DNA from: a virus
Virus record (IMG/VR): IMGVR_UViG_3300049827_000271
Location: 10,404-74,403 of that record
Length of the DNA stretch: 64,000 nt
Reading direction: 5' to 3' (one strand)
The number at the start of each line of letters is the position of its first letter. The first letter of the stretch is position 1. Shown here piece by piece: positions 8,801 through 63,532 of this stretch. Both the position numbers and the translations under genes were made by a program. Under the pieces are notes generated by a model, which did no database searches, was not told where the DNA came from, and was given only the letters and a program-made list of their open reading frames with translations.

Positions 8801-11800
8801 GACGAGCGCGTTCATTGGCTGTTTCAATTCTGATGAACGCTCCAGTGGGGCGGCTTGTTTGGATTTCAACTCCCGGTCGGACTGCTCCGCCAGCAGGGAG
8901 TCCGCCAAGAGCCTTCTCGATACGCTCGAACTCATTGTATTTTTCGAGGATGGTTTGGGCAAAGTATTCTTTCTTGCCTTTGGTAGAGTGATAGGTTTCA
9001 TAAATATCGTCAGCCACAGATAGCACTACTCGCTCGGCCTCTGCATTGGTGCTTGCGCCTTCTTCTTGCAGTTTCAGGTTGACCAGATTTTTGACGGCGA
9101 AGATGAGGCGCTTAATCTCGCTTGGATCGGTCAACCCTCCAATCTGTTTTGGAAGCTGCTTGCGCTCAACCAAGCCATTCCGTTCGGACGCGAACACGCG
9201 GTCGAACTCCTCTCGGCTATTTCCAGCCGAAGGGCCGTAAGCCTTCATCAGCAGGTCAACCTCTTCCGGCATGGCCGGGCGAGCTTTTGTTCTTCTGAAT
9301 CCGTCGCCAACATCGTAAGCCGGATCATCCAAGACTGTCTCAACGTCAGCGATCTCACCTTCAGCCGAAGCATCCGTAGGCTGCTCAATAGCGCGCGTCA
9401 CCCTCGGCTGTTCCACCGCCTGCCCTTGCGCCTGCAACTCCTCGCGCTTGGCGTCGATCTTCTTGGCGAACTCCATGAACGCCGCCTCACTCTCAAACTT
9501 CTGGAGGAAACCGCGGCGCGGCTCGTCCAGGAGCATGGCGGCCATGAGCGTGTAGCGGTGCTTGCCGTTTTCCGGTCCTCCCTTGACCACGCGCTCGTCA
9601 TTGACAAACAGGTCGCGCCACTTGGAACTGTCCCTTGGGCTGCGCTCGCGCTCCGCCTCATTCTCAGTCGTGGTCTTCTTCCACTTGGCCGGGTCCACGA
9701 TCATCACGTCCGTTGCCTTCGGGTAGGCTCCAGCGACATAAACCGCTCCAGTCTGATTGTCCTTGAACACGGCGGTCATCCGTGTGGTCTTCGCGCTGAC
9801 GCCGCTCGTGCGGGCCATCCCGCCGAAAATCTTCGGCAGGTTAGGCGCGTCATCCTGGAGGTTGACACTGCGGAAGACCGGAACGTTACTGGCCCGCGCC
9901 ACCGCATCCATGATAGGCTGCGCCTGCTGGATCGTCTCATCCATCATCTGCTGGACGTGTTCTACGACTTCCTCCGCCTCCAAGTGATGCTTGTCCACGT
10001 ACGCATCCAGCGCCGCTTGGTCTTCTTTGGACAGCTTGCCGCGCTCGCTCGCGCGCAACAGCCCCTCCATGCGCGAGGCTTCCATGAACTGGTTGCCAAG
10101 CCGGTGCAGCCGTTCGTCGTTGGTGACATCCAGACCTGATTCGTCCGGCTGGCCCCGCTTGCTGAGTTTGCGATGTTTTTTCCAGATCAGGTCGTGCAAG
10201 ACCTGCGTGAAATTCTCACGACTCAACCGGACGGACTGACCGTTCTCATCTAGCGATCCTCGATACCACCCCAGATCGTTGACATCCAATTCTCCGGTGT
10301 CATTGCGGAACCGGCGGGCGTAGATCGGTTTGACGATGTGGTTGAACAACTCCGTCTGAAGCTTGCGGATGGACCATGCGCGCTCGGAGTAGGCTTCACG
10401 GTCTTTCCGGGTGTTCCGCTCGTCCTGCTTGGCGGCCTCGCGCGTGCGCTGGTCGCGTGCGAACCGCTCGGCAAATGCGAGGGACGGAGCAATTCTTTCG
10501 CGGGCCGCTGCGCGCTCCTCCTTGGTCATCTTCTTGGAGAACTCGACTTCGGGATGGACCAGCTTGTGGAGTTCCAAGCTGTCTTGGTAAATCTCTTTCT
10601 GCCGGTTTAGCAAATCGGTATCCCGTTTCACACGCTGTTCCAGCACGGAGCGCAGAACAGTGCGGGACTTGAGTTTCTGATTTTCCTCGCGCGCCAGTTC
10701 AAGCAGCTTTTCCTGCATCTCATGGAACGTGCTGGCGCTGTCCTTGGTTTCCACCGGGATTTCATCGCCGTTCTTTTTGGCTTCGTCGATCCTGGCTTTC
10801 TGCGTCAAGCGGGATTCTCCAAACGCGGCGGAAGCCCGCTTGATTTGTTCCACTTGCAGGCGCAGGCCCGCGCTTGTTCCGCGCGTCTTCTCGTCCAACT
10901 CCTTTTCCAGTTTGGACAGCTTTTGGGCCAGCGACTTCTCCTGTTTCGCATTCTCAGGATTGGTATTCTCGATCTCGGCAATCCGCTCTTGCAGTGCCGC
11001 CACTTCTTTGTCCAACTTCGCTGAAGAGCCTTCGGTCTGAATCTTTATCTTGGCTGCCGGCTCCGCGTGGATGACCCTTGAATCCTCTCCCTTGGCCGCC
11101 ATGTCATCCAAGAGCGACTTGTTGGAAGCAATCGCCTGTTCTTGGGCTTGGATTCCAAGCCCAATGCTTTCATGCCTAAAGCGTTCCAGTGGATCAGAGA
11201 GATCGAGCGCACCGCGCAGCATCAATTCCTGAGCCCGCGCAGTGGCGAATGTCTGCGGCTGAACGACGGCAAGCCGCGCCTCATCTTCTGGCGTTCGGTT
11301 CTTCTTATTGAATAGAAACTCAAATTCCCGCTCCACCGGAAGAGATGCCAGTAACTCCTGTATGCGCGCCCGGTCTTCGGGTGTCGGTTTTTTCTTGCGT
11401 GCCAATGTCCGCAACTCCTCAAGGTTCTCCTGCTCTCGCGTCTTCGGCTCCCAGTTTGTGGCCGCTAAATCTTTCAACTTCTCCCGATAGCCATGACCAA
11501 GCGCATCGCCAGCCACGTTGGCCTTCTGTGATTTTTCCGCCAACTGCTTACTGTCCAGTCCGGTGACGATCTCCGCAACCTTCTGCACAAACGCATCACG
11601 CGCGGTCAGCCAGTGGATCGGAATGTCCTTCTCCTTCAGATAAGTCGTGAACTGCTTGGGCTTGACCAAGTGCAGGTCGCGCTTGCGCGAGGACAGGAAA
11701 TCATGGGCGGCATCGAACACGCTCCGCTGGTAGTCCGGCTCCGGCGGCGGGGCAGGAACGGTCTTGACCCCAGGCGGAGGCAGGTCTGGGCTGGGAGATT

Positions 11801-50276: not shown

Positions 50277-50687
50277 ATGAACACACCACCAAACACTACA
50301 CCAACCATCGAACAAGAACATCACCTGCTGGTAAAACGGCTGGCCAAACCGGGACCGGAGATCGCGCAGGATTTTCTGCGTGATCCAGGCAAGGCCCATC
50401 TCATGCACATGATCGTCGGGATCATGGGAGAGGCCGGGGAATTGCTGGACACAGTAAAGAAGCACTGCATCTACAACAAGCCGCTCGATGTCACCAACAT
50501 CGAAGAAGAATTGGGCGATCTCGAATTCTACACGCGCGGCCTGCGAGATGCGCTGGGGATCGAACGAGACTATACGCTTCGGATGAATATAGCCAAGCTC
50601 AACACGCGCTACCCGGAGGGCTACACAGATCGGGCCGCGCAGAAGCGAGCGGACAAGGAATTTGAAAAGGAGGCGTCCAATGGCTGA
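50277..50687 (+). CDS. MazG-like nucleoside triphosphate pyrophosphohydrolase
   Basis: GIMGEAGELLD, EEELGDLEFY, NIAKLNTRYPEGY. Confidence 0.9.
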   Translation: MNTPPNTTPTIEQEHHLLVKRLAKPGPEIAQDFLRDPGKAHLMHMIVGIMGEAGELLDTVKKHCIYNKPLDVTNIEEELGDLEFYTRGLRDALGIERDYTLRMNIAKLNTRYPEGYTDRAAQKRADKEFEKEASNG

Positions 50688-51348
50688 CCAGAAACGCAAC
50701 CGCACCGTATTCGGACGCATGGAAATCGACTACCCTGCCGGGGCGGTCAGTGTGATCGGGCAGCAATGCGATGGCATCCATGTTCACACCAAGAAGTGTC
50801 AGGACGAAAGGGTTATACCTTTCGACGCCCTGATTGACAGCGATCCGGGCCGCCGCCGGTTCTCGGCGTTGGGCGCGGAGTGGGACTCCAAATTCACCAC
50901 CTCCGGATTTCTGCTCAAGAAAGCGTGGCAGCCGTGGGATCGCGCCAAACTCATCACTTGGCAGATGCTAGCCGAGGCCGCGGTAGGCCAGTTCCATCTG
51001 GATTTTGGAGCAGAGCGCGCCACGGTCACTGCTGTAAGCCCTCCGGAGCCGAGCGTAGAACTTTATCCATTATCAGGCCAAAATCCGCAAGCTCCCTACG
51101 GAAAGATTGAGATTGGAACCTCAGAGCAGATTCCCAACCCAAGACTTCGTGACGGCTGGAGCCTGTGGATTGAAAACAGAACTTGGTGTGTTGCGCCAAA
51201 AATTGATCCTGAGCATTTCGGAAAACACGCATACATGGATGATATGGGAGATTGTCCATGTGGGTGCATAATGAACCAGACCTCCTCAAGCGGCCCGGTC
51301 GATCCGTTCGGCCCGTGCCCGCTCAACCCGCTGGAGGTGACTCCATGA
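50680..51348 (+). CDS. hypothetical protein with a C-terminal Cys cluster
   Basis: SD AAGGAGG; CPCGC...GPCP.NP. Confidence 0.6.
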   Translation: MADQKRNRTVFGRMEIDYPAGAVSVIGQQCDGIHVHTKKCQDERVIPFDALIDSDPGRRRFSALGAEWDSKFTTSGFLLKKAWQPWDRAKLITWQMLAEAAVGQFHLDFGAERATVTAVSPPEPSVELYPLSGQNPQAPYGKIEIGTSEQIPNPRLRDGWSLWIENRTWCVAPKIDPEHFGKHAYMDDMGDCPCGCIMNQTSSSGPVDPFGPCPLNPLEVTP

Positions 51349-51608: not shown

Positions 51609-51826
51609 AATCAAAAATAACACAAAAAGACGGACTGAAACTCTCAACGGCTCTCGACGCGCTCGCGCTCGCGCTGGCCGGTCACAAGCACAAATGGACT
51701 GCAAAACAACGGTCTGCTTACGAGCGTGCCGTGTCGGTGCTCGGCAAAACCTTCGCAGGTGAAGTGCCGCCGCCACGGCGGCGCAATACTCAGGAACACC
51801 GGAGACTTTATTCCGAACGACCATGA
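51605..51826 (+). CDS. hypothetical protein
   Basis: ATGA overlaps; 3' end lies in a degenerate attC-like site. Confidence 0.55.
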   Translation: MKSKITQKDGLKLSTALDALALALAGHKHKWTAKQRSAYERAVSVLGKTFAGEVPPPRRRNTQEHRRLYSERP

Positions 51827-51896
51827 CAACCGAATCACCGAAACCGTCCGACGAAGCCAAAGCGGGGGCACTACTGCCTCCAGCGATGGGTTCAAC
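51744..51896 (-). other. degenerate attC-like site
   Basis: Good left arm GTTGAAC-CCATC-GCTGGAGGCAGTAGTGCC; eroded right arm GGCACTTCACCTGC...GTTTTGC. Confidence 0.45.
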
Positions 51897-52038
51897 CAAC
51901 TACAACTCACGCCAAGAGACAAACGAACACATCCTGCGCGTGCGCGAACTCGGTTGGTCGGCCGCCCAAGCTCAGCGACGGCAGCCGACAGCGCCGCCGC
52001 GAGCGCAAAAGAAAGGAAAAAATCACGATGATCTCTGA
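51823..52038 (+). CDS. cassette-borne hypothetical protein
   Basis: Both termini are encoded by attC-like arms. Confidence 0.5.
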   Translation: MTTESPKPSDEAKAGALLPPAMGSTNYNSRQETNEHILRVRELGWSAAQAQRRQPTAPPRAQKKGKNHDDL

Positions 52039-52080
52039 ACGTAAAGCGTGGCTGCCGTTCGCTGAAGTGCATAGTTCGGC
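51957..52080 (-). other. attC-like site with a mutated R' core
   Basis: GCCGAAC-TATGC-ACT(T)CAGCGA(A)CGGCAGCC ... GGCTGCCGTCGCTGAGC-TTGGGC-GGCCGAC. Confidence 0.75.
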
Positions 52081-52309
52081 GACCTGCTGCCTGTGCAACT
52101 GGACAAACGTAAACCTCTTAAACCTAGGAGAACCCGGAGCACCGCGATGGACGTGCCACGGCTGCTGCAAGCGAATGCTCGATACACTGGAGAAACTCCG
52201 AGAAGGAGACTTCGCTGGCACGCCAATCAATCGCGGCAGTTCTGCGATGCTGCTCATAGATGAAACGCTGTCGTCTAACAAAGAACAGGCCGCACTGCGT
52301 ACACCATGA
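52028..52309 (+). CDS. cassette-borne small Zn-finger-like protein
   Basis: CCLC...CHGC; SD AAAGGA and ATG lie inside the attC loop. Confidence 0.6.
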   Translation: MISERKAWLPFAEVHSSATCCLCNWTNVNLLNLGEPGAPRWTCHGCCKRMLDTLEKLREGDFAGTPINRGSSAMLLIDETLSSNKEQAALRTP

Positions 52310-52536
52310 ACAGGACACTTGGACAGATTCGCCGGAAAAGATTCTCCCTAATGCGGGCCGCCAAGGAGCGGAAACGTCTGGCCAGCCAGCCTACGGAACG
52401 GGAGCCTAGAATAGAAAAGTTTCATCGGATGGAAGTGACAGTAAAAGACCGTCTCACAGGAGAATCCGGTTCCGCGGAGATCAAGAGTGCCCGCCATGCG
52501 GCCAGACTGTTTCAGTGCTTTTTCGGGAGCATTTAG
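52306..52536 (+). CDS. basic hypothetical protein
   Basis: ATGA overlap. Confidence 0.55.
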   Translation: MNRTLGQIRRKRFSLMRAAKERKRLASQPTEREPRIEKFHRMEVTVKDRLTGESGSAEIKSARHAARLFQCFFGSI

Positions 52537-52549
52537 CGCAATATCCATC

Positions 52550-52777
52550 ATGCCCGTCAACACACTGAAATCCATCTCTAAATGGCAGGCGGACTACCGC
52601 CGCTACCTGTCAGACGTGCGACGCCAGCAACCGGCGCCGATCATGCCCGCCGAACCCGCGCTGGAAACCCCAATGGAGCGCGCCGTGCTCGCGGAGGCCA
52701 AGCGACAGGAAGACTTGGCGCACGCCAGGGCGCTGGATCGACAGCAGGCAAACCCGTACTGGAAGAAACCGAGTTGA
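52550..52777 (+). CDS. hypothetical protein
   Basis: 75 aa, co-oriented. Confidence 0.5.
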   Translation: MPVNTLKSISKWQADYRRYLSDVRRQQPAPIMPAEPALETPMERAVLAEAKRQEDLAHARALDRQQANPYWKKPS

Positions 52778-52970
52778 CATTTTTTCCGGCCAGCCGATGT
52801 TGGCCGGAAATCTCCCGCGAGCGGCGCGGGACTGCGGCCCGTGACGGGGCCGGTAAAACCGTGGTAAGCATGAACATTGATCCATCCAGTCTGCCCGTGG
52901 CGATCCCGCCCATCTTCGGCCCCGCCGGAGAGCCACGGCCCGTCACCGTCGCGGGCAGACTGGGTGGATT
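52774..52970 (+). promoter_or_regulatory. highly structured leader / candidate ncRNA upstream of ssb
   Basis: TTGACA followed by three hairpins and a ~22-bp stem (52880-52901 / 52948-52969) with G-U pairs. Confidence 0.55.
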
Positions 52971-52990
52971 TTCTATCACAAACTACACTT

Positions 52991-53428
52991 ATGGCATCAT
53001 TCAATAAAGTAATTTTAGCCGGAAATCTGTGCCGCGACCCGGAGGTCCGCTACACTCCCAAGGGAACGGCGGTCTGCAAATTCTCCATCGCGGTCAACCG
53101 CAAGTGGAAGAACGAGGCTGGAGAACAGAAGGAGGACGTGACCTTTGTGGACATCGACTCGTTTGGTAAGCAGGCGGAAACCGTGGCGCAATGGTTCAAG
53201 AAGGGGAATCCAATTCTGGTGGAGGGCCGGCTCAAGCTGGATCAGTGGGAGGACAAGAATACAAAGGAAAAGCGGAGCAAGCTTGGTGTGGTGTTGGAAG
53301 GGTTTTCGTTCTTGGGCGGAAAGTCAGATGCGGCCCCCAAGGAATCACAAGCCTCCAATCCGGAGGCAAGCGCTGGACAGGCGGCGTCTCCGCCTCCAGC
53401 CGGAGATGATTCGGACATTCCGTTTTGA
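52991..53428 (+). CDS. ssb: single-stranded DNA-binding protein
   Basis: NKVILAGNLCRDPEVRYTP, VEGRL, acidic DSDIPF tail. Confidence 0.97.
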   Translation: MASFNKVILAGNLCRDPEVRYTPKGTAVCKFSIAVNRKWKNEAGEQKEDVTFVDIDSFGKQAETVAQWFKKGNPILVEGRLKLDQWEDKNTKEKRSKLGVVLEGFSFLGGKSDAAPKESQASNPEASAGQAASPPPAGDDSDIPF

Positions 53429-53440
53429 CCCGCTTCCGGT

Positions 53441-55465
53441 ATGACTGACATTATCTCCAGCTTCCGCCAAGCACTCCATGCCTCTGGCTTGGAGTATGAC
53501 GGCCCGATCCACGCGGACGGGACCATTCACCGATTCTCCAATAACGGCGACGAAGAGCGGAATAGCTGGTATCTACTGCATCCAGACGGAATTCCATCCG
53601 GAGCGTTTGGATGCTGGAAGCGGTCGATCAGCCAGACTTGGTGTTCCAAGTCCAAGAACGAGATGTCCCGCGAGGAGATGTCTGCGTTCTCCCGCCTCTG
53701 CGCGGAGGCCCGGCGCATGGCCGACGAGAAACAGGCGGCCATGCACGCGCTGGCCCAGGAGACGGCGAAGGAATTGTTCGAGCGGCTCCCCGGCGCTACA
53801 GGCGATCATCCGTATCTGCGGCGCAAGGGGGTAAAAGCACACGGAGACATCAAGGTGGATGAGCGCGGAAACCTGGTCATCCCCCTCCGGGACGAGCATG
53901 GTGATGTCTGGTCTGTCCAGACCATTTCACCAGATGGGGAAAAACGCTACATGTCAGGCGGACGCAAGCGCGGCTGCATGTTCTCCATCGCCAAGGCGGA
54001 GATGGGACCGCTCATCATCGCGGAAGGCTACGCAACGGGAGCCACATTGCACGAGGCCACAGGATACTCCGTAACCTGCGCGATGGACTCGCATGGATTG
54101 GAGGCCGCCGCCGTGGCCGCCCGAACCGCCTACCCGGATCGCCGGATCGTCATCGCCGCCGATTGCGACAAGTGGGACAAAGATGGGAAACTCCGCAAAG
54201 ACCCAAGCGGAAAGCTGCTCAATCCAGGCAAAGACGCGGCGGATAAGGCAGCGCGGGCGGCGGGCGCAACCGTGGCCTATCACGATTTTAAGGAGCCGAA
54301 CACAGGCTCGGACTTCAACGATTTGGCCAAACTCGCCTCTTTGCGAGAGGTCAAGCGGATGATCGACCGTGCGATCCCGGAGTGCAGTAAACGTATAACA
54401 ATCGAAGAACTTATGAATCATGTAAAAAATGAAGACCCAACCAACTTACTAGGCGACCGATGGCTGTGCCAGGGCGGATCATGTCTGATCGTCGGGCCAA
54501 CCCATGTTGGAAAGTCATCACTGGCCCTGCAAATGGCCGTCTTCTGGGCATTGGGCATGTCGTTTTACGGGATAAAGCCGGCGCGACCGCTGCGGAGCGT
54601 GTTCATCCAGGCGGAAAATGATACCGGGGACATAGCTGAGATGATCCAAGGCATCCTTCTTGGGGGAGGACTGATCCGGGATGACTTGGCGGCCAACGAA
54701 GAGATTATGAGGATGCTGGACGCAAACCTGTTCATCGTCCGGGACCAGACTCATGTGGGAGAGGCGTTCGCCGTTTTCATCAGGGAGTTGATCTCTTTTT
54801 ACAAGCCGGACCTGTGCTGGGGCGACCCGCTCATGTCCTACTACGGGGATGACATCAACAACCAGCAGGCGGCTACGAAGTTCTGCCGAGAGTTGATCAA
54901 TCCAATTGCCGAGCGCACCGGGGTCACATTCATCTTCCTCCACCACACGGGCAAGCCGATGAAGGACGCGGCCAAGACCACCAAGGGCTGGGCCTCGGGA
55001 GATTACGCCTACATGGGGATGGGGAGTTCCGAGTTCTCCAATTGGGCTCGGGCCATCATCTGCGTGGTCCGCACCGCCGAGGACGAGTTCAAGTGTATTT
55101 TCGCCAAGCGCGGCTGGCGGGCGGGGGCGAAAGCCGACGACGGAACGGTCACGAACGAACTGCTGCTCGCCCACTCGGCGGAGCACATTCACTGGAAACA
55201 GATTCCGCAACCCCCAGAGAAAGAGGAGGAGGAGGAGGGTGCGTGCGCCGCGTTCGCCAAGCGGCTGATCGGAGAGAACCTGACGGCCACCCAAGTCGTC
55301 CACCGGGCGTCCAAGGATATGAAGCGGGGCATCCGCACCGTCTGGAAGCTGTGGGGCCAGGGCCAGGGCGCGCTCGGAAAGATGTTCCGACAAGACCCGG
55401 CGACCAAACTCTATACCCCGCTCAACGCGGCCATGCCGGTTGCGCGGGGGTGCAAGGATGACTGA
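53441..55465 (+). CDS. Toprim primase fused to a RepA/AAA_25-type helicase
   Basis: HPYLRRKG, AEGYATG, AADCD, DFND; Walker A GPTHVGKS, DPL, HHTGK. Confidence 0.92.
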   Translation: MTDIISSFRQALHASGLEYDGPIHADGTIHRFSNNGDEERNSWYLLHPDGIPSGAFGCWKRSISQTWCSKSKNEMSREEMSAFSRLCAEARRMADEKQAAMHALAQETAKELFERLPGATGDHPYLRRKGVKAHGDIKVDERGNLVIPLRDEHGDVWSVQTISPDGEKRYMSGGRKRGCMFSIAKAEMGPLIIAEGYATGATLHEATGYSVTCAMDSHGLEAAAVAARTAYPDRRIVIAADCDKWDKDGKLRKDPSGKLLNPGKDAADKAARAAGATVAYHDFKEPNTGSDFNDLAKLASLREVKRMIDRAIPECSKRITIEELMNHVKNEDPTNLLGDRWLCQGGSCLIVGPTHVGKSSLALQMAVFWALGMSFYGIKPARPLRSVFIQAENDTGDIAEMIQGILLGGGLIRDDLAANEEIMRMLDANLFIVRDQTHVGEAFAVFIRELISFYKPDLCWGDPLMSYYGDDINNQQAATKFCRELINPIAERTGVTFIFLHHTGKPMKDAAKTTKGWASGDYAYMGMGSSEFSNWARAIICVVRTAEDEFKCIFAKRGWRAGAKADDGTVTNELLLAHSAEHIHWKQIPQPPEKEEEEEGACAAFAKRLIGENLTATQVVHRASKDMKRGIRTVWKLWGQGQGALGKMFRQDPATKLYTPLNAAMPVARGCKDD

Positions 55466-55721
55466 CCGTGCGCCACGTCTATCCATTAACCGACGAATTA
55501 TGCTAGACCTAGAACAAATCAAACTCATCGGCTCCATCAACGCGCTGCGCGAGCAGATCGAATCCCGGCTGTGGATCGTGCGCAACAACTGCTTCAACGA
55601 CTACGTGGACGGCCCGGCATACATCTGCTTGGGCAAGTGCATCGAAAGAGCCCGCTCCGAGCTTAGGGATGTTGAAGCCCTGCTCCAAGAGATGAATCGG
55701 CTGGACGGAAGGAGCCAGTAG
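55458..55721 (+). CDS. hypothetical coiled-coil protein
   Basis: Overlaps the primase stop. Confidence 0.5.
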   Translation: MTDRAPRLSINRRIMLDLEQIKLIGSINALREQIESRLWIVRNNCFNDYVDGPAYICLGKCIERARSELRDVEALLQEMNRLDGRSQ

Positions 55722-55722
55722 T

Positions 55723-56190
55723 ATGTGCGACCATAATTCTCCTGCTGAACCCATCTCCGCGGCCTGCCCGGCGCCCTCTGACAGCACCGCTGGAGACTTC
55801 AAACTCCCCCTGGCAAACGCGCCGTGTTTCTTGGCCGGGGTGAATCAGACCGCGCCGCTCCGTCCGGGGGACGAAGAGAGTAGTGGGGCACACTCCACTC
55901 TTGCCCCCGGCGGCGCGGCGCAAGCTGAAAGAATCGAATGGATTGACTTGCTCATCGTTCCGCAGGACGTGGACCGCGTGCGTATTTCCGAGATGATCCG
56001 TGAAGTTGGAGGAGTGCTCTCATGGCATGATGAAGACATGCGCGCCGGATTGCCGCTCAATGCTGCGGTGGGCGCTTTTCCAGGAAGAGCCGATGATGTT
56101 CGCAGCACGATGCTGAAGCTACGCGGACACAACGACCCAAGCTCTGCCACATGGCGGGGCGGAAAGGACTCCAAATGCAAAGTGAACTGA
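55723..56190 (+). CDS. hypothetical protein whose C-terminus is encoded by an attC-like arm
   Basis: Ends ...GHN-DPSSATWRGGKDSKCKVN inside the 56127-56227 site. Confidence 0.5.
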   Translation: MCDHNSPAEPISAACPAPSDSTAGDFKLPLANAPCFLAGVNQTAPLRPGDEESSGAHSTLAPGGAAQAERIEWIDLLIVPQDVDRVRISEMIREVGGVLSWHDEDMRAGLPLNAAVGAFPGRADDVRSTMLKLRGHNDPSSATWRGGKDSKCKVN

Positions 56191-56227
56191 ATCGCCCCGC
56201 CATGTCGGCAGCAGCGCATGGTTTGGC
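56127..56227 (-). other. attC-like recombination site
   Basis: GCCAAAC-CATGC-GCT(G)CTGCC(G)ACATGGCGGGGCG ... CGCCCCGCCATGTGGCAGAGC-TTGGGTC-GTTGTGT. Confidence 0.85.
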
Positions 56228-56588
56228 AAAAAACCCACATGACTCAATGACGGCATGGGATAGAAGCTGGAAACCTCACCATCTTCCAATGTGGGCGAGA
56301 AAATCTATCCGACTGGATGCGATAAAAAAAGACAACTGGCGTGCCTATCCAGGATGGCCAGTCAACAACCATGCCGAGGCACACCTTCCGCACGAACTGT
56401 TTGACCATTGGGGCAGCGTAAAGCGCGGTAAAACACGCGCACTCATAGCGCAACCCTATGGCGAACATGATGCACTCGCGAAATCATTCGCATCCGAACT
56501 CGGATGGTCAGTCAAATCTTTCACGCCCGGCCCGTGGAATGATGGAACGTGGTGCTACGAGTTTTTGCCGAACAATGCGCAATCCTAA
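56175..56588 (+). CDS. cassette-borne hypothetical protein
   Basis: SD AAAGGA and ATG in the attC loop; FDHWG...QPY...PW motif; ends LPN-NAQS. Confidence 0.7.
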   Translation: MQSELNRPAMSAAAHGLAKNPHDSMTAWDRSWKPHHLPMWARKSIRLDAIKKDNWRAYPGWPVNNHAEAHLPHELFDHWGSVKRGKTRALIAQPYGEHDALAKSFASELGWSVKSFTPGPWNDGTWCYEFLPNNAQS

Positions 56589-56600
56589 ACCGAGTACGCC

Positions 56601-57104
56601 ATGCACAAGATTGTTTCCCGCCACATCCTTTGGCCATGCCTCTTGCTTCTAACGGCGTGCCACCATCCTGTTGGTCATCCCGCTTCCCCTCCGCTGCCTG
56701 CGCGTTCCGTCCCGCGATCCGGTCTGCTTCCATTGCGGCCCTGGACCAACATCATCCAGGAGACGCTGGTGCCCGCCGAGTTACGATGGAGCCAGCAGGC
56801 GGCTCCGGCTTTCATCAACGGCCAGTGCGTGGAAAGTAATTCATGTCCAATCATGCTCACAGTAGGCCGTCTCCAGTGGTTCTCGGCCAGCACGGAGGGA
56901 GGCGAGGAGACGAACCGGCTGGCGGTCCTGGCCTGGCCTGATCCCGCGTCTCCGGACACCGCGGTTCTGAAGGTCACAACCGCTGTGCGCCGAACTGCCG
57001 CTGGGAGTGAAATCATTTCCCGGACGACCAACGCCGGGACGGACAGGATAACCCTGTTGTCAGCAACCAATCCAACTGGATTTTTTTTAATACTTAGACC
57101 GTAA
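56601..57104 (+). CDS. putative lipoprotein
   Basis: LLLLTA-C lipobox; TN motifs; ends ATNPTGFF. Confidence 0.55.
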   Translation: MHKIVSRHILWPCLLLLTACHHPVGHPASPPLPARSVPRSGLLPLRPWTNIIQETLVPAELRWSQQAAPAFINGQCVESNSCPIMLTVGRLQWFSASTEGGEETNRLAVLAWPDPASPDTAVLKVTTAVRRTAAGSEIISRTTNAGTDRITLLSATNPTGFFLILRP

Positions 57105-57105
57105 T

Positions 57106-57474
57106 ATGAAAATAGAACAACACATACAACTAGACCGATGGATCGCCGTGAATATCAACAAATGGCCGGAGCCGGAGTGGGTTTACGATGATGGGATTGA
57201 CTACAAGCACGGGACGCCGGGCAACAGCGTGCTGTGCCGCTATGCGCCGACCGAAAACCGCAGCGAGGCCCTGCATGTGCTGGAGAAGTGCGCAGAGCGA
57301 ATGAGCAAGCTGCATGATGATGATCGCTATATCGCCATTGGCTATGAGCGTCTGACTGGCAATTTTATTGTATGCGAGTCAGACGTGGCCAACGGCATTA
57401 GCGTGGATGGGGATACGCTTCCACTCGCCATCTGCCTGTTCGCCCGCCGGCTCTTTGAGAAAGGCGCGGAATGA
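57106..57474 (+). CDS. phage ABA-sandwich (BC1872-like) protein
   Basis: LDRWIA...W...PTENRSEALHVLEK...TLPLAICLFA. Confidence 0.65.
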   Translation: MKIEQHIQLDRWIAVNINKWPEPEWVYDDGIDYKHGTPGNSVLCRYAPTENRSEALHVLEKCAERMSKLHDDDRYIAIGYERLTGNFIVCESDVANGISVDGDTLPLAICLFARRLFEKGAE

Positions 57475-57848
57475 ACACACCACAAACCGATCAGTGTGTC
57501 TCCGAAATACAGGCGCAGGTCCAAGCGCTGGAGAATGCCGGAACGACCGTGTGCATTGATGACGCAGAAAATATGTTGAAGGGTTACTTCGATAAGATCA
57601 TCGCGCTTTCCCGCCGGCTGGAGCAGGAGCTTTCCGCCGAGAAAGCGCGGGCGGAGGAGGCAGAGGAGGCGTTGGCGGAGTTGAAAGACGCGGCAGGGGC
57701 AATTTTCTCCGACTTCGTGGATGACGCTCTCGACCAGCCTTTTTGTGAAGTCCAAATGAACGTGCAGCTTGGCAAGGTGAGAAGGGTGATGCGCGCGATT
57801 TCAGCCGCCCGCTCCTCCGGCTTGACAAACGAAAAACCATCAGCGTGA
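57471..57848 (+). CDS. hypothetical coiled-coil protein
   Basis: MNTPQTD...RRLEQEL pattern common in small phage proteins. Confidence 0.6.
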   Translation: MNTPQTDQCVSEIQAQVQALENAGTTVCIDDAENMLKGYFDKIIALSRRLEQELSAEKARAEEAEEALAELKDAAGAIFSDFVDDALDQPFCEVQMNVQLGKVRRVMRAISAARSSGLTNEKPSA

Positions 57849-57994
57849 TTACCCCATGACGCAAAAAATCATCAACTGGCAGCGGCGCTACACCATCGTC
57901 AAATACCTGGCCTACACGATGGCCGCCGGCTCCCTCGTCTCCCTCTCCTACATCCTGAAGGCCATCGCCATCCACCTCGAAACCTGCCACTGAC

Positions 57995-58192
57995 ATGGCA
58001 TCCCACAGCCGCAAAAGAAAACCCTGCGATCCCAACCGCTGCTGCTTCTCGTTCCGGGGTTATGAGTGCCAGGAGAGCCCGGCTTGGTTCAGCACCAGCA
58101 ACGGACACACCACTTACTGGTGTGACGGACACAAGAAGGCTTTGGAACAGTACTGCTGCCCCGCCTCGTGGCAGAGATTGAGAGGCCCATGA
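57995..58192 (+). CDS. small Cys/His-rich protein
   Basis: RCC...C...WCDGH. Confidence 0.5.
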   Translation: MASHSRKRKPCDPNRCCFSFRGYECQESPAWFSTSNGHTTYWCDGHKKALEQYCCPASWQRLRGP

Positions 58193-58542
58193 ATATCCAT
58201 CTCCATCCCAACAAACGCCGCGGTGGCTGGTTCGTCGTCGCCTGCATCGTGGTCGTCGCCCTGGCCGTGGTCGTCACCATCACCTACTGCATTTACGACG
58301 CGGCCCAGATACCGCCCCGCCCGCCCCCGGACGAGGAGAACATCCGGTCGGTCATGTTCCGGGTGTCCGGCCTTGTCAACTCCACGAATGGCGCCGCCCG
58401 GATCACCGCACCGGTCGCTCGGGTCGGGAGGTTTGTACTCCAGTTCTCCACCAACTTGACGGACTGGCAGGACCGGGAGGCCATGCTGTTCGACGACCTG
58501 ACCAACCGCTGCGGTTTTTATCGCTGGAAACTTGAGCAATGA
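58189..58542 (+). CDS. membrane-anchored protein with an STNLTDW...FYR C-terminal domain
   Basis: N-terminal TM helix; LQFSTNLTDW...GFYR. Confidence 0.65.
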   Translation: MNIHLHPNKRRGGWFVVACIVVVALAVVVTITYCIYDAAQIPPRPPPDEENIRSVMFRVSGLVNSTNGAARITAPVARVGRFVLQFSTNLTDWQDREAMLFDDLTNRCGFYRWKLEQ

Positions 58543-58754
58543 AACCACAACATCACCTGCTACCCCTCCGGCCAGACTGCGCCCGGCTGGCCTCCCGCTG
58601 CCACCCGGACGCGGCCACGCACGTCCTGGTCCACGCCGATGACACGCTGGAAATGCGGTGCGCCCAATGCCAGAGGGCGTTCGCCTGGCTTCGGTTCAGC
58701 CCTCCACTTCAACCGGGCCGTCCGCGCGGTGCCGGAGCCAATGAGTCCGGATAG
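58539..58754 (+). CDS. small Zn-binding protein
   Basis: SRCHP...RCAQC; ATGA overlap. Confidence 0.55.
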   Translation: MKPQHHLLPLRPDCARLASRCHPDAATHVLVHADDTLEMRCAQCQRAFAWLRFSPPLQPGRPRGAGANESG

Positions 58755-58871
58755 CGACCGGATGAACTGTGAGGTAACGAGCAAATCACAGCGACGATTA
58801 ACAAATGGAAGAAAGCCCACTCCGCCGTATGACGGTGTGAACTCGTCAATTTCCGCTCCCGCCATTCAACG

Positions 58872-59312
58872 ATGTCAAACTGGATAACCTCCCCGGACAA
58901 CCGGCCCTCCCATTCCGCCCGCACTCCATCTGAGCGCGACCGGCTGGTCCACGAGGCCAAGGAGAAGCTGGTCCTCCTCAAAATGCAAAGGGAATCCCTT
59001 GACTTGGAGATCAACCGGAAGACCGTGCTGCTGGAGGAACTGCTGTTGATGAAAGACGAGTCCAAGGTGGCGCTGGTGGGCGGGCAGCTTCACGACCAGA
59101 CCGTGGCCGGGATGGTGATCAAGGCGCTGGACGCTCATGGCCAGGATGAGTTCACGGCCCGAGAGATCAAGAACCGGGCGATCCGCATGTTCCCCTTGGA
59201 GGAGCGCCGGATCAAGCTGGGGTTCTACGCCGCGCTCGCCCAACTGTCCAAGAAGGGGATGGTCCGGCGACGCTGCCGGAATCAGTGGAGCCGTATTCCA
59301 GTGGAGGTTTGA
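58872..59312 (+). CDS. coiled-coil plus winged-helix protein
   Basis: FTAREI...YAALAQLSKKGMV...W. Confidence 0.55.
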   Translation: MSNWITSPDNRPSHSARTPSERDRLVHEAKEKLVLLKMQRESLDLEINRKTVLLEELLLMKDESKVALVGGQLHDQTVAGMVIKALDAHGQDEFTAREIKNRAIRMFPLEERRIKLGFYAALAQLSKKGMVRRRCRNQWSRIPVEV

Positions 59313-59319
59313 TTGCGTA

Positions 59320-59346
59320 TGAAACGACTTGCGCGGGGTCGTTTCA
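59320..59346. terminator. hairpin between convergent gene blocks
   Basis: TGAAACGAC / GTCGTTTCA 9-bp stem with AT-rich flanks. Confidence 0.55.
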
Positions 59347-59371
59347 ATATACGAGCTAAAGTTGCCGAATC

Positions 59372-60037
59372 CTAGTTGGGCCACTTGGCGCACGTCGCAG
59401 CCAATTCGAGCAGGTAGTGCGCAAACGCGGGAGGTGTGGCGTTTGCCTCACGCTTTGAGAGTGTCGGTTTGTTTGCGGCCTTTCCGCGCTGGTCGTGGAA
59501 GCCGACTTGGTGCGAGCCGGTTGGCCGCTCCCATCGAGGTTGAAGTGGCGCATCCGTGCCGGAGCAGTAGAGCCACGTCCGCTTGTTCGCTCGATGGCCG
59601 TAGGCCGATTGCCAGACTTCGCAGACCAATCCTTGCTTCCATCGCGTTCATCCAGTTGCCGGACGCGGCAGGCCGTGCGCTGGCCATGCGTAGGTTTCTG
59701 CTGGATGTTCCAGCACACCGCCGCAGCGGTTCACGGTATCAAGCGCGAAGCGGAAGCATCCGCCATCGTTGCCCGGCTTGTTGTGTTCGCCGCCCCATCG
59801 CAGGTAGTTTATCTTCGCCATCTTTCCCCACAGTTGGCAGGGAGGATGCGCCACGACCGGCGCGTTGCCGGTGTAGGTCATCGCGTCACGCTCTGCATCG
59901 TAGCAGTCGCAGCCTAGCGACTTGTAGAGAGAGTCTTTCATCACAAACAACACGACGTGGCCCAACCATGCGCTGCTGCCAATGAGTGCCGCGTCGGGCA
60001 TCACTGTCGATTGAACGTCTTGGGTCGCGGCACTCAT
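59372..60037 (-). pseudogene. cassette-borne C5-cytosine methyltransferase-like gene with an in-frame TGA
   Basis: VAHPPC and VLEHP motifs; track ORFs 59648-60076 and 59372-59629 share a frame and are split by one TGA (59648-59650). Confidence 0.65.
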
Positions 60038-60058
60038 GGCAGAGCTTGGTCGTTCGGT
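59960..60058 (+). other. attC-like recombination site 1
   Basis: GCCCAAC-CATGC-GCT(G)CTGCC(A)ATGAGTGCCGCG ... CGCGGCACTCATGGCAGAGC-TTGGTC-GTTCGGT. Confidence 0.88.
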
Positions 60059-60312
60059 GGACCACACTTGTCGCATCGGACTTCGCCGTTATAGCGGAGG
60101 ATGTGCTCAAAGGAGTGCGTCTCCTTTTCTTCCGGCGTCACCCAGATTGTCCACGCTTCGCCATTGCACAGTTTGCAGTTCAGAGGGCCGTATAGTTCTC
60201 CAAATGTCACCGGGACATGCGTGCTTGAGCGTGGTTGCATCAACGAGGCCACCGAACAACCGGATGCAGACAACCCCGCCATTGCGCCTTGTTCGAGTTC
60301 AAGAGTCTTCAT
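60034..60312 (-). CDS. cassette-borne Zn-ribbon-like protein
   Basis: CKLC...CDKC; starts in attC2 and stops in attC1. Confidence 0.6.
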   Translation of the reverse strand: MKTLELEQGAMAGLSASGCSVASLMQPRSSTHVPVTFGELYGPLNCKLCNGEAWTIWVTPEEKETHSFEHILRYNGEVRCDKCGPPNDQALP

Positions 60313-60342
60313 GGGGGGGGTGTCTGATCCGGAGCGTTAGGC
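60251..60342 (+). other. attC-like recombination site 2
   Basis: ACCGAAC-AACCG-GAT(G)CAGACA(A)CCCC ... GGGGTGTCTGATC-CGGAGC-GTTAGGC. Confidence 0.88.
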
Positions 60343-60636
60343 ATCTAGGCCATCTTTCTTCATGGCGGCATCAACCGCATCGCGGTATGTGTCGCCCCAG
60401 CACGTTGTCCCGTCGCTGGCCATCACGAGGAATGGCGCTTCCTTCACGTTCTCGCGCTGGTGGGTTTCTTCGAGCCAGCACAGGTAGTCGAAGCAGTCAG
60501 CTTTATACATCATCTCCTGCGTCATCATCGCGCACAGGCGGGTTGCTAGTTGGTCGTCGGAGAGCTTTGACGCCGCCGAGCCACTGCATGGAGCAGAACC
60601 CGGCGGAGCGTCAGGCTGTTGAGAGTCACTTGGCAT
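60337..60636 (-). CDS. cassette-borne hypothetical protein
   Basis: SD AAAGGA and ATG in the attC3 loop; C-terminal TYRDAVDAAM motif; TAA stop lies in the attC2 core. Confidence 0.65.
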   Translation of the reverse strand: MPSDSQQPDAPPGSAPCSGSAASKLSDDQLATRLCAMMTQEMMYKADCFDYLCWLEETHQRENVKEAPFLVMASDGTTCWGDTYRDAVDAAMKKDGLDA

Positions 60637-60686
60637 TGGTATCCTTTCGGGTTGTCGCGCCGGGTCGCTCATGCAGGCCGTTAGGA
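60575..60686 (+). other. attC-like recombination site 3
   Basis: GCCGAGC-CACTG-CAT(G)GAGC(A)GA(A)CCCGGCG ... CGCCGGGTCGCTCATG-CAGGCC-GTTAGGA. Confidence 0.8.
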
Positions 60687-61195
60687 GAATAGAGCGCGCT
60701 CACCTTGCTTGGTGGGTGGACGCCTTTACCGAAGTCCAGCGCGAGAGCGACGAGCCACGGCAGATTGCCGATGGTCTTTTCTTCGCCGCCCGCTATCGCC
60801 TTCGATGACACCACTTCGATTTGTTCGGACTCCATTGATGTCAGTTTGTGCGGCTCGCCGATGGTGTAGAAGAACTCGACCTCAAAACTTCCGCCGTCGT
60901 TATTTGTTCCTGACATTGAGCAGAAGTGCGTCCAGTCGGAAGGCCACAGTCCGGCTTCTTCGCCGAACTCTCGGCACATGGCGTTGATTGCTTCTTCGCC
61001 GGCTTCGACCTTGCCGCCGATGCCGTTGAGCAGCCCGGCTTGCCACGCTGGTTTGTTTTTGCGGATTAACGCGACGTTCGACATGGCCACATCGAACATG
61101 AAGCCGACCACATATTTGGTTTGGCCCGATTCTCCTAGCAAGTCGCTGGAGGCAACGGCGGGTTTGCGTTGCTCGATTGTCTTTGGTGCATTCAT
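60626..61195 (-). CDS. cassette-borne NUDIX hydrolase
   Basis: Nudix box GGKVEAGEEAINAMCREFGEEAGL. Confidence 0.92.
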   Translation of the reverse strand: MNAPKTIEQRKPAVASSDLLGESGQTKYVVGFMFDVAMSNVALIRKNKPAWQAGLLNGIGGKVEAGEEAINAMCREFGEEAGLWPSDWTHFCSMSGTNNDGGSFEVEFFYTIGEPHKLTSMESEQIEVVSSKAIAGGEEKTIGNLPWLVALALDFGKGVHPPSKVSALYSPNGLHERPGATTRKDTNAK

Positions 61196-61238
61196 ACGTT
61201 TTGGTTGTTCTCGCCGTGCCTCAGCTTAATCGTCAGAT
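61133..61238 (+). other. attC-like recombination site 4
   Basis: TCCTAGC-AAGTC-GCT(G)GAGGCA(A)CGGCG ... CGCCGTGCCTCAGC-TTAATC-GTCAGAT. Confidence 0.8.
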
Positions 61239-61294
61239 ACAGGTTCATTGACCCCTCCCCTCTTCTACGTCACGCGCAGTCGTCACTGGTTCAT

Positions 61295-61600
61295 TCATGG
61301 TTTCCTTTCCGCTCCACCGTTTCCGCCGGAGCGGGCAGGGGGAGCTTTATCGTTTGGCTTACTCCGCCGCCATCCAGCGGGGCCGCTTGATCCCCCCCTA
61401 TTTTTAGACCGATGCAGGAACGCCTCACACACTGTCAGCCGGATATAAACTTGCTCGCAGTCGAGGCATATTGCCCGCCTCCACACGCCTGGCGCGTCTG
61501 TGTATTTGTAGCTAGAACAGACCGGGCAACGTCCGTCCGTGGAAGCCAGCCTGCCCGACGGTTCCCGTCTGGCTGGAGCGGGTGAAGGTTTATGGCTCAT
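61295..61600 (-). CDS. small Zn-ribbon protein
   Basis: CPVC...CLDC; ends PN-DKAPP in an attC right-arm remnant. Confidence 0.5.
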   Translation of the reverse strand: MSHKPSPAPARREPSGRLASTDGRCPVCSSYKYTDAPGVWRRAICLDCEQVYIRLTVCEAFLHRSKNRGGSSGPAGWRRSKPNDKAPPARSGGNGGAERKP

Positions 61601-63423: not shown

Positions 63424-63532
63424 AGCGGAAAAGGCAGGCCGATGCACACTGCAAGGGAGGGTGGGGGCCCCTACCCCCAACCCTCCCTTGCATTGGCATG
63501 TGCTTTCGCTCGGCCTGCCGATCTTTTCCGCT
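63424..63532. repeat. long imperfect inverted repeat (~109 bp)
   Basis: AGCGGAAAAG-GCAGGCCGA...TGCAAGGGAGGGTGGGGG / CCCCCAACCCTCCCTTGCA...TCGGCCTGC...CTTTTCCGCT. Confidence 0.8.

Follow-up and report, generated by a model that had tools for sequence, protein, structure and literature searches.

The small early genes of this viral genome are packed so closely that neighbouring genes share hairpin DNA at their junctions, which raises the question of whether these hairpins are recombination sites of the integron attC type and, if so, how genes that are read straight through such sites could be exchanged. A preliminary description of the window (the whole 64-kb stretch of DNA analysed here, part of a 74-kb record) had proposed that attC sites double as joints for translational coupling, with the AAC of the crossover core read as an in-frame Asn codon. 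The results mostly support this interpretation, and they support a view of the virus as a phage of Verrucomicrobiota that keeps several of its small early genes as integron-type swappable cassettes. We consider it probable that these are integron-type gene cassettes whose genes, in contrast to those of ordinary cassettes, occupy the attC bottom strand.

Both strands of the entire window (128 kb in all) were scanned for a single long hairpin bounded by AAC...GTT. Three hairpins alone (A, B and C) scored at or below -21 kcal/mol, and all others were at -16 or above. Three additional sites (E, F and D) are decayed or weak; all six were scored with R1, a covariance model built from 32 related copies. 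Rfam gave no relevant match for the elements. The sites are as follows:

Element A, 56127-56229, plus strand: intact attC-type site (fold -26 kcal/mol, z -3.5; scan outlier; R1 86.2 bits) in which ACACAAC and a 6-nt spacer lead into a 21-bp stem that carries two bulges on its 3' arm, followed by GCATG and GTTTGGC; its loop contains AAAGGA and ATG 56175, and its hairpin core is 100% identical to that of L112.
Element B, 59958-60059, minus strand: intact attC-type site, ACCGAAC ... GTTGGGC (fold z -3.4; R1 94.9 bits); the ATGA at 60037-60034 is the upstream stop overlapping the downstream start.
Element C, 60249-60343, minus strand: intact attC-type site of another sequence type, GCCTAAC ... GGATCAG..CTGCATCC ... 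GTTCGGT (-17 to -22 kcal/mol, outlier in the hairpin scan; R1 26.9 bits), of the same subtype as the L088 sites at 10050 and 11804.
Element D, 60573-60687, minus strand: weak or decayed site with left core TCCTAAC and right core mutated to GCTCGGC; R1 score weak (6.6 bits, E = 4.5) and hairpin seen in the centroid fold only.
Element E, 51963-52082, plus strand: attC-like hairpin whose left core is mutated and whose right core, at 52074-52080, reads GTTCGGC (R1 27.6 bits, E 1e-6); the loop holds AAAGGA, ATG 52028 and the stop of the upstream ORF.
Element F, 61131-61239, minus strand: decayed site that retains stem and bulges, with both cores mutated (GAC / GCT); R1 28.1 bits.
Lone core, 59375-59381, minus strand: GCCCAAC then TAG, without a hairpin, at the end of the minus-strand array.
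Remnant left half-site, 61333-61358, minus strand: GCCAAAC GATAA AGCTCCCCCTGCC, without a hairpin partner, read as KP-N (core 61358-61352) within ORF 61295-61600.

All six elements lie on the coding strand, which is the attC bottom strand as judged by bulge position. Elements F, D, C and B sit in one orientation on the minus strand within 1.3 kb with no intI nearby, and thus form a CALIN (at least two attC sites close together under these conditions); A and E are solitary, with a lone core downstream of each. The end boxes RYYYAAC / GTTRRRY are present in A, B and C and in nearly all related copies, the cores of E, F and D being mutated, and half of this phage's sites are decaying. A stretch at 51744-51896 that had been read as an eroded attC gives no match to R1.

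Every codon reading that had been claimed across the cores is present in the sequence, as are the ATGA overlaps at 60034, 51823 and 61295 and the AAAGGA motifs 4-10 nt ahead of the ATGs at 52028, 56175, 60636 and 61298. Four of the junctions (59375, 52279, 56573 and 61352) are bare cores without a hairpin. The ORFs that meet at these junctions are:

51823-52038, plus strand: upstream ORF, 71 aa, that traverses the left arm of E in a frame equivalent to phase 0, the core there being mutated to GCC; its stop, TGA at 52036-52038, is in the loop of E.
52028-52309, plus strand: zinc-ribbon-like cassette ORF, 93 aa, with its start in the E loop; it reads the lone core GTCTAAC (52273-52279) as SS-N and ends in the tail KEQAALRTP*.
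55723-56190, plus strand: upstream ORF, 155 aa, with AAC 56131-56133 read as Asn (GH-N) and a 19-aa tail and stop supplied by element A.
56175-56588, plus strand: cassette ORF, 137 aa; the lone core GCCGAAC (56567-56573) is read as LP-N, followed by NAQS*.
59372-60037, minus strand: cassette ORF phrog_12600, of unknown function, which begins with the ATGA in B's left arm and terminates in WP-N* (TGG CCC AAC TAG, core 59381-59375); it contains an in-frame TGA at 59650-59648.
60034-60312, minus strand: cassette ORF, 92 aa, with its ATG in the left arm of C; it ends PP-N and then the tail DQALP* from B.
60337-60636, minus strand: cassette ORF, 99 aa from ATG 60636 (AAAGGA ahead), with the TAA of GCCTAAC inside the core of C as its stop (60339-60337).
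60626-61195, minus strand: NUDIX hydrolase cassette ORF (Pfam PF00293), 189 aa, starting in the loop of F; it ends SP-N and then a 17-aa tail from D.

In control ORFs elsewhere in the window, an in-frame x-N (YYY-AAC) was found near the C-terminus in 2 of 39, and the strict in-frame YYY-AAC motif occurs in only 6 of 28 early genes (a list compiled by hand). The x-N dipeptide is therefore unusable as a detector on its own, and our support rests instead on the hairpins and on comparative data. In the searches for related sequence, blastn of 8 kb against isolate phages returned only one short match, to a Ralstonia phage, and a related-locus search with the primase-helicase returned none.

For comparison, 51 element copies were assembled from the window, other phage contigs, metagenomes and Verrucomicrobiota MAGs, 32 of them sequence-similar and phylogenetically non-independent, and 19 sequence-diverse. 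The published attC bottom strand has a 5' RYYYAAC, an unpaired spacer of 5-6 nt and, on the arm opposite the cleaved AAC, 2-3 bulged bases about 6 bp apart with T as the distal one (PMC5027507). Our sites have the same 5' RYYYAAC and the same unpaired 5-6 nt spacer, with a length of 95-120 nt. On the coding strand the 3' arm carries two bulged bases, 5-6 bp apart, of which the distal is T in 31 of 32 copies and the proximal is C instead of the usual G; the spacing in the commonest type is 5 bp, as against the 6 needed by IntI1 (PMC5027507). The left-core consensus is GCCNAAC; many right cores read GTTCGGC and so lack the R of position 4. Pairing was conserved in 97% of cells (slid controls gave 24-61%), with compensatory two-sided changes at 9 of 21 pairs. 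Elements unrelated in sequence (the C and L088 subtypes) have spacer, bulge and core geometry in common. Arrays run in a single orientation with a spacing of 370-1200 nt. Canonically, a cassette ORF occupies the attC top strand with attC on its 3' side; the six elements and all their relatives are instead antisense, the coding strand being fixed by the NUDIX and methyltransferase genes.

The reading frame is locked to these sites. In 41 of the 51 copies the AAC of the crossover is read in frame as Asn, and in 5 a TAA in the core serves as a stop; copies outside phase 0 mostly use TAA-C in this way. The bias in core frame that had been predicted for a larger set thus holds in both groups, phase 0 being found in 27 of 32 sequence-similar and 14 of 19 sequence-diverse copies, with one third expected by chance. 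The distance between the in-frame stop and the next start falls within -11 to +14 nt for 32 of 34 sequence-similar copies, and stop and start overlap as ATGA in 15.

The proposal had also been that similarity between cargo proteins should stop at the xN junction. This could be followed at the protein level in three cases, with unrelated tails beyond the junction in each: alignments of the NUDIX homologues end at ...YS[AP]N, the 18 homologues of the 56175-56588 protein are conserved up to ...EFLPN and variable thereafter, and the closest relatives of the 52028-52309 protein end their alignment at [SK][SP]N. Some homologue tails (NDQALRP, NDPSSAT) appear to be the translated left arm of a neighbouring hairpin. 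N-termini of homologues are likewise variable up to the ..LG encoded by the right core, as anticipated. For ORF 55723, homologues were sought that would tell whether precise excision restores ..GHNNAQS*, and none was found.

At the DNA level, segments common to different contigs begin and end at core AACs. The window and L104, a metagenome contig, have in common a gapless 680-nt cassette (60054-59375) of 91% identity that runs from AAC to AAC and ends exactly at the AAC of the lone core 59375; its protein terminates in ..KWPN* in the window and in ..KWPNR* in L104. L089/L121 (710 nt), L099/L101 (253 nt) and L096/L118 break at, or a few nucleotides from, the left-core AAC. A 929-nt indel, located between two copies of the element, distinguishes L083 from L090; this junction does not by itself fix the crossover position. 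Where contig pairs have only one flank in common, it is the downstream flank in 4 of 5. The borrowing of C-terminal tails from downstream sequence is supported by the frame bias, the unrelated tails past xN and the DNA breakpoints at core AACs taken together.

No match to the IntI model TIGR02249 was obtained in the whole 74-kb record, in which the sole tyrosine recombinase is a weak Xer-like phage integrase, and the record holds no complete integron (an intI with its insert, plus attI beside the array). As the phage has no IntI, its sites form integrase-less, partly decaying clusters. In two related phage contigs, G158 and G157, IntI-like genes adjoin the arrays (TIGR02249 scores of 246 and 230 bits, below the curated cut-off of 265 bits), and with Xer models the same proteins reach only some 95 bits; no attI was identified. 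A full-length alignment of the G158 protein with a host IntI shows 38% identity and spans a ..LP..LA.KYP....W.W.FP stretch, which we take to be the IntI-specific insert. A methyltransferase cassette adjoins the gene in G158, and in the relatives the intI-to-attC orientation is canonical, with the intI 5' end toward the array. Two of three host MAGs carry a true IntI, and the intI contigs end at the array. Cutting in the present phage would be done by an integron integrase from the host or from a co-infecting phage.

The strongest competing explanation holds that the hairpins are mainly translation-control structures in mRNA and that the genes are swapped by homologous recombination between repeats of about 100 nt, with no integron integrase. 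The RNA fold is indeed very stable (-43 to -47 kcal/mol, z -4.1 to -4.9), the G-U pairs are located on the sense strand, where such wobble pairs are equally compatible with folded RNA and with a folded DNA bottom strand, and the phage is without IntI; hairpin cores are also 95-100% identical across otherwise unrelated contigs, and so provide ample homology for recombination. Yet breakpoints fall at bare 7-nt cores without flanking homology as well (the window against L104 at 59375), elements of unrelated sequence keep an identical geometry, and IntI-like genes stand beside arrays in canonical orientation. We regard this explanation as unlikely, and RNA and DNA roles are in any case not mutually exclusive. 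A further alternative is that selfish miniature palindromic insertions (MITE, REP or RPE-like) landed at gene junctions, the stop and start signals being incidental. It would suit near-identical units of about 100 nt between unrelated flanks, and the scattered, mostly single matches in 8 of 151 Verrucomicrobiota genomes, a survey that scored only 26 candidates per genome and carries little weight. What contigs have in common, however, is the hairpin with its ORF rather than the hairpin alone, no pairs with an empty site were seen, the arrays run in one direction at spacings of 370-1200 nt, and frame lock with the upstream ORF is unexpected under random insertion; we find this alternative highly improbable. 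That ordinary overlapping phage genes carry x-N near their C-termini by chance, as in the control ORFs and at the four junctions without a hairpin, is scarcely credible given three scan outliers in 128 kb of strand, the covariation, the phase-0 excess and the exact AAC-to-AAC homology.

Integron-type cassettes thus being the preferred reading, their resemblance to known systems can be drawn more closely. In T4-type phages, promoter/stem-loop 'mobile regulatory cassettes' occur on either side of small early genes and are believed to promote the modular shuffling of the genomes. These resemble the present elements as repeated structured units flanking small early genes, but differ in having promoters and in relying on homology for recombination, with no attC geometry, integrase or frame lock. 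Canonical integrons (class 1 and Vibrio chromosomal, in which IntI acts on the folded bottom strand) are alike in the R boxes RYYYAAC / GTTRRRY, the unpaired central spacer, the L box with extrahelical bases on the L'' arm, the variable centre, the site length (57-141 nt), the single orientation of arrays, the AA|C crossover of the bottom strand (putative in the phage) and, in the phage relatives, the intI 5' end facing the array. Unlike them, the phage ORFs lie on the bottom strand with attC ahead of the ORF, the presumed crossover falls inside the upstream coding sequence in fixed phase, the arrays have no Pc-type layout and are read toward intI, the proximal extrahelical base is C rather than G, and the window has no integrase. 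Clusters of attC sites (CALINs) and integrons have been described in temperate and virulent phages, often without intI and with methyltransferase cargo (Qi et al. 2023, PMC9892861), which matches the present clusters and the G158 cassette. In the parts of that study available to us, cassettes are oriented as in bacterial arrays or are mixed, and antisense ORFs, an in-frame crossover and hairpin-borne stops and starts are not reported. The parts of a review that we consulted (PMC8876359) describe ORF-11/ORF-18, which extend across the attI1 crossover, short ORFs within attC sites that permit termination-reinitiation, and attC mRNA hairpins that block ribosomes unless translated through. There too a reading frame runs over the recombination point and is closed by a stop in the core of the adjacent cassette; but as described there the coupling involves a small leader peptide or an occasional short ORF, whereas here cargo proteins cross every attC in fixed phase over whole arrays. 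Phage attC clusters are thus already published (Qi 2023), and our literature search found no published account of antisense, frame-locked coupling.

We therefore propose the following mechanism. In the coding direction, the mobile unit would consist of C, a 5-6 nt spacer, an imperfect hairpin, GTTxGGC, the ORF body and ...RYYYAA; since it runs from C to ...RYYYAA, the putative AA|C crossover on the bottom strand, placed there by the homology breakpoints, would lie within the upstream gene. Nearly every cassette ends with AAC as a whole codon, usually Pro-Asn, so that any upstream gene enters the next hairpin in frame. The hairpin then gives a short tail and a stop a few nucleotides from the start of the next gene, and this start is either in the loop behind a Shine-Dalgarno sequence or overlaps the stop as ATGA. 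Exchange of cassettes would thus restore an operon with translational coupling and alter C-terminal tails alone. Such coupling presumably operates in vivo, and the reverse orientation may suit a compact phage operon, as the preliminary description suggested; none of the tests it had set for its own refutation went against it. More tentatively, and at somewhat less than even odds in our judgement, antisense frame-locked cassettes could represent the usual architecture of a separate integron lineage carried by phages, with intI as the last gene of the early operon, attC sites co-opted as universal stop/RBS/start linkers, and the integron as a shuffler of small early genes that may act in counter-defence. 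In the same view, placing the recombinogenic bottom strand on the non-template strand may tie attC folding, hence cassette exchange, to transcription of the operon.

The usual teaching presents integrons as arrays driven by a promoter, in which orientation serves expression from Pc and attC hairpins hinder translation. Here the same recombination chemistry is apparently run in reverse, with the crossover in coding sequence in fixed phase and the hairpin bearing stop and start. The C-terminal (and N-terminal) residues are then linker-encoded and dependent on context, which affects gene calling and homology searches, and the arrangement, if true, would provide a new annotation rule for cassette boundaries and a simple system in which to study strand choice and the way translation and attC folding affect each other. 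It would also mean that phages could swap genes with the coupled operon intact, and would supply a definite mechanism by which their early regions become mosaic.

The source IMG/VR virus record is 74.4 kb long and an estimated 97% complete, and 64 kb of it make up the window. The preliminary description had proposed that upstream ORFs of the window cross attC cores with the AAC read as an in-frame Asn codon, that stop and start codons lie in the hairpin and that tails are borrowed from downstream. All the codon readings it listed at junctions were found in the sequence (its labels are gene coordinates); the observation is confirmed and its interpretation is supported. The junctions lie in two gene blocks:

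~50.1 to 59.3 kb (+): early genes, including MazG-like, SSB and primase-helicase
63.4 down to 59.37 kb (-): second gene block

Ordinary overlapping phage genes were our initial expectation, which was dropped after homologues of the NUDIX protein had been aligned: these are conserved from KYVVGF to YS[AP]N and then continue into unrelated tails. Similarity ended at the same kind of xN junction in two further cargo proteins. Homologues of protein 56175-56588 are conserved to CYEFLPN, followed by the variable tails NAQS, DKLTDG, DPSSAT (the translated left arm of an A-type element) and EKS, and the closest relatives of protein 52028-52309 show [SK][SP]N in the same column, with differing tails beyond it. 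Cargo N-termini are variable up to LLG or GLA, which are encoded by the right core. In the 221-aa protein of the cassette of element B, phrog_12600 covers residues 29-216, and the 28 hairpin-encoded residues lie outside the match.

Two NUDIX-homologue tails (NDEALRP and NDQALRP) resemble PPNDQALP, the tail, ended by a stop, of an unrelated window ORF, and this likeness led to a ~100-nt element common to 56127-56229 (+) and 59958-60059 (-). The two copies have the same ends, and their centres differ yet are complementary. Each copy (A and B) folds into a 21-bp hairpin interrupted by two bulges of one base each (z -3.4 to -3.7). When both strands of the window were scanned end to end for AAC...GTT around one long hairpin, three sites reached -21 kcal/mol or lower (A, B and C), each at a junction named in the preliminary description, and no other site fell below -16 kcal/mol. 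A covariance model of the element family (R1), searched against the window, gave six sites, all on the local coding strand; the cores of D, E and F are mutated, and three of the six are decayed or weak:

51963-52082 (+): element E, R1 27.6 bits
56127-56229 (+): element A, R1 86.2 bits
59958-60059 (-): element B, R1 94.9 bits
60249-60343 (-): element C, R1 26.9 bits
60573-60687 (-): element D, R1 6.6 bits
61131-61239 (-): element F, R1 28.1 bits

Fainter traces were also seen. TCCGAACGACCATGA at 51812-51826 (+) resembles the left end of B (core, spacer and ATGA) without a stem, its AAC being out of phase (GAA CGA), and may be a collapsed site. The stretch 58140-58232, at the ATGA junction 58189, has CTCTGCCAC..GGCGGGGC / GGCAGCAG in common with type-1 arms in a repeat search; it may be an element remnant, for which R1 gives 5.9 bits only. 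In-frame P-L-N (GCTCAAC) occurs 6-12 codons before the stop of the primase-helicase (55425-55465, +) and of ORF 50662-51348 (51320-51348, +); neither site has a hairpin, and each may be a coincidence or a very old core. Separately, past the last minus-strand gene, 63447-63495 holds an almost perfect inverted repeat (21 bp, 7-nt loop), for which Rfam returned chance-level miRNA matches only.

The reading frame at the core is biased. Of the sequence-similar copies whose upstream frame is open for at least 40 codons, 27 of 32 read AAC as a whole codon (phase 0) and two have a TAA-C stop; among sequence-diverse copies, phase 0 was found in 14 of 19, with TAA in the core in three more. In 32/34 copies the first phase-0 stop falls within -11 to +14 nt of the downstream start, with an ATGA overlap in 15; non-zero phases are usually open for hundreds of nucleotides, often reaching the next ORF. 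The common right arm is translated in two frames (AAAHG and GSSAW), and conservation is therefore at the DNA or RNA level. Of the window elements, A, D and E carry AAAGGA and ATG in the loop with the upstream stop 8-13 nt past the ATG, B has ATGA in its left arm, the core of C supplies TAA, and the NUDIX start is located inside F. As RNA, A, B and C form highly stable hairpins (-43 to -47 kcal/mol). A ribosome completing the upstream ORF would need to open the stem; translational coupling classically depends on such opening and may operate in this way at the window elements. In 61298-61194 (-), a pair of mini-ORFs, each some 17-18 codons long and linked by ATGA overlaps (61298, ~61250 and 61195), joins ORF 61295-61600 to the NUDIX start across decayed F, in what looks like a termination-reinitiation relay.

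Comparison of the window minus strand with another contig, L104, by blastn gave a single gap-free 680-nt match (91% identity) running from the left-core AAC of B (60054) to the AAC of a lone core, GCCCAAC (59375), with unrelated flanks; the cassette protein ends in KWPN and a stop in the window and in KWPNR and a stop in L104. The phrog_12600 cassette gene (ORF 59372-60037) is interrupted in both, at different Trp codons: an in-frame TGA at 59650-59648 (-) is TGG in L104, and L104 3511-4180 has TAG where the window reads TGG. Common segments from all-versus-all blastn (L089/L121, 710 nt; L099/L101, 253 nt; also L096/L118) start, and end where the contig allows, at or within a few nucleotides of the left-core AAC, and none starts or ends at a right core. 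Between two identical elements, contig L090 has a unit of 929 nt that is absent from L083; because both copies are identical, this junction leaves the crossover position unplaced. Among contigs with the same hairpin, a single shared flank is the downstream one in four pairs and the upstream one only in the L083/L090 indel. Taken together, AAC breakpoints and downstream-flank sharing point to a mobile unit of hairpin plus downstream ORF, cut between the AA and C. Bare cores end all three window arrays in the coding direction (59381-59375, 56567-56573 and 52273-52279), and would be the expected leftover of insertion at a simple AAC target.

Exact-pattern scans located the element type in 6 viral contigs, 30 metagenome contigs and 3 Verrucomicrobiota MAG contigs (Chthoniobacter, Verrucomicrobiales and one unclassified member), with 37 distinct copies in total. 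A 32-copy alignment shows 97% pairing and compensatory changes in 9/21 pairs; slid controls pair at 24-61%. The coding strand reads RYYYAAC, 5-6 unpaired nt, stem, variable centre, 4-5 unpaired nt and GTTxGGC, and two bases, separated by 5-6 bp, bulge from the 3' arm of the stem, with T at the distal position. This geometry is that of the published attC bottom strand, with the cleaved AAC at the 5' end (R') and extrahelical bases near L'' (PMC5027507), and the coding strand is therefore the bottom strand. Unlike published attC (PMC5027507), the elements described here have C instead of G as the proximal bulge, and 5-bp spacing in the commonest type. The cargo ORFs lie on the reverse strand relative to ordinary integron cassettes. 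Elements in L088, L086 and L093 are unrelated in sequence and alike in geometry, which is typical for attC and atypical for sequence-defined repeats.

Phage-genome attC clusters and integrons have already been published, some of them recombined by IntI1, as set out in Qi 2023 (PMC9892861). PMC8876359 describes ribosomes impeded by attC mRNA hairpins, and termination-reinitiation coupling through ORF-11 at attI1 and through short ORFs within attC. What differs here from the published phage clusters is ORFs antisense to attC with a frame-locked crossover, arrays for which a full-text literature search found no description.

IntI-like proteins are encoded in two of five element-bearing viral records, the related phages G158 (246 bits) and G157 (230 bits), both below the TIGR02249 cut-off of 265 bits; Xer models score only ~95 bits on them. 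The G158 protein aligns over its full length with a true IntI of a host MAG (411 bits) at 38% identity, including the stretch ..LP..LA.KYP....W.W.FP. We take this stretch to be the IntI-specific insert. The two loci look like complete integrons:

G158, L145 53-2439 (all one strand): two sites, DNA methyltransferase cassette, terminal core, IntI-like gene
G157, L088 6155-14575 and L146 171-1412: at least 12 R1 matches in one orientation at a contig end

The terminal core of G158 is only ~30 nt ahead of the IntI-like start, and in G157 one further R1 match immediately precedes the IntI-like gene at a contig start. Placement of intI relative to attC polarity is canonical, and the cargo ORFs alone are inverted. 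Among the three element-bearing Verrucomicrobiota host MAGs, two encode true integron integrases that exceed the cut-off (L125, G002:C331, 411 bits; L126, G001:C135, 268 bits); both contigs stop where the cassette array should begin. In the window, ORF 1475-2641, a weak Xer-like phage integrase, is the sole tyrosine recombinase, and the integron-integrase model did not match it. The window's phage is without IntI, and its sites are therefore CALIN-like, an attC cluster lacking an integrase, and partly decayed.
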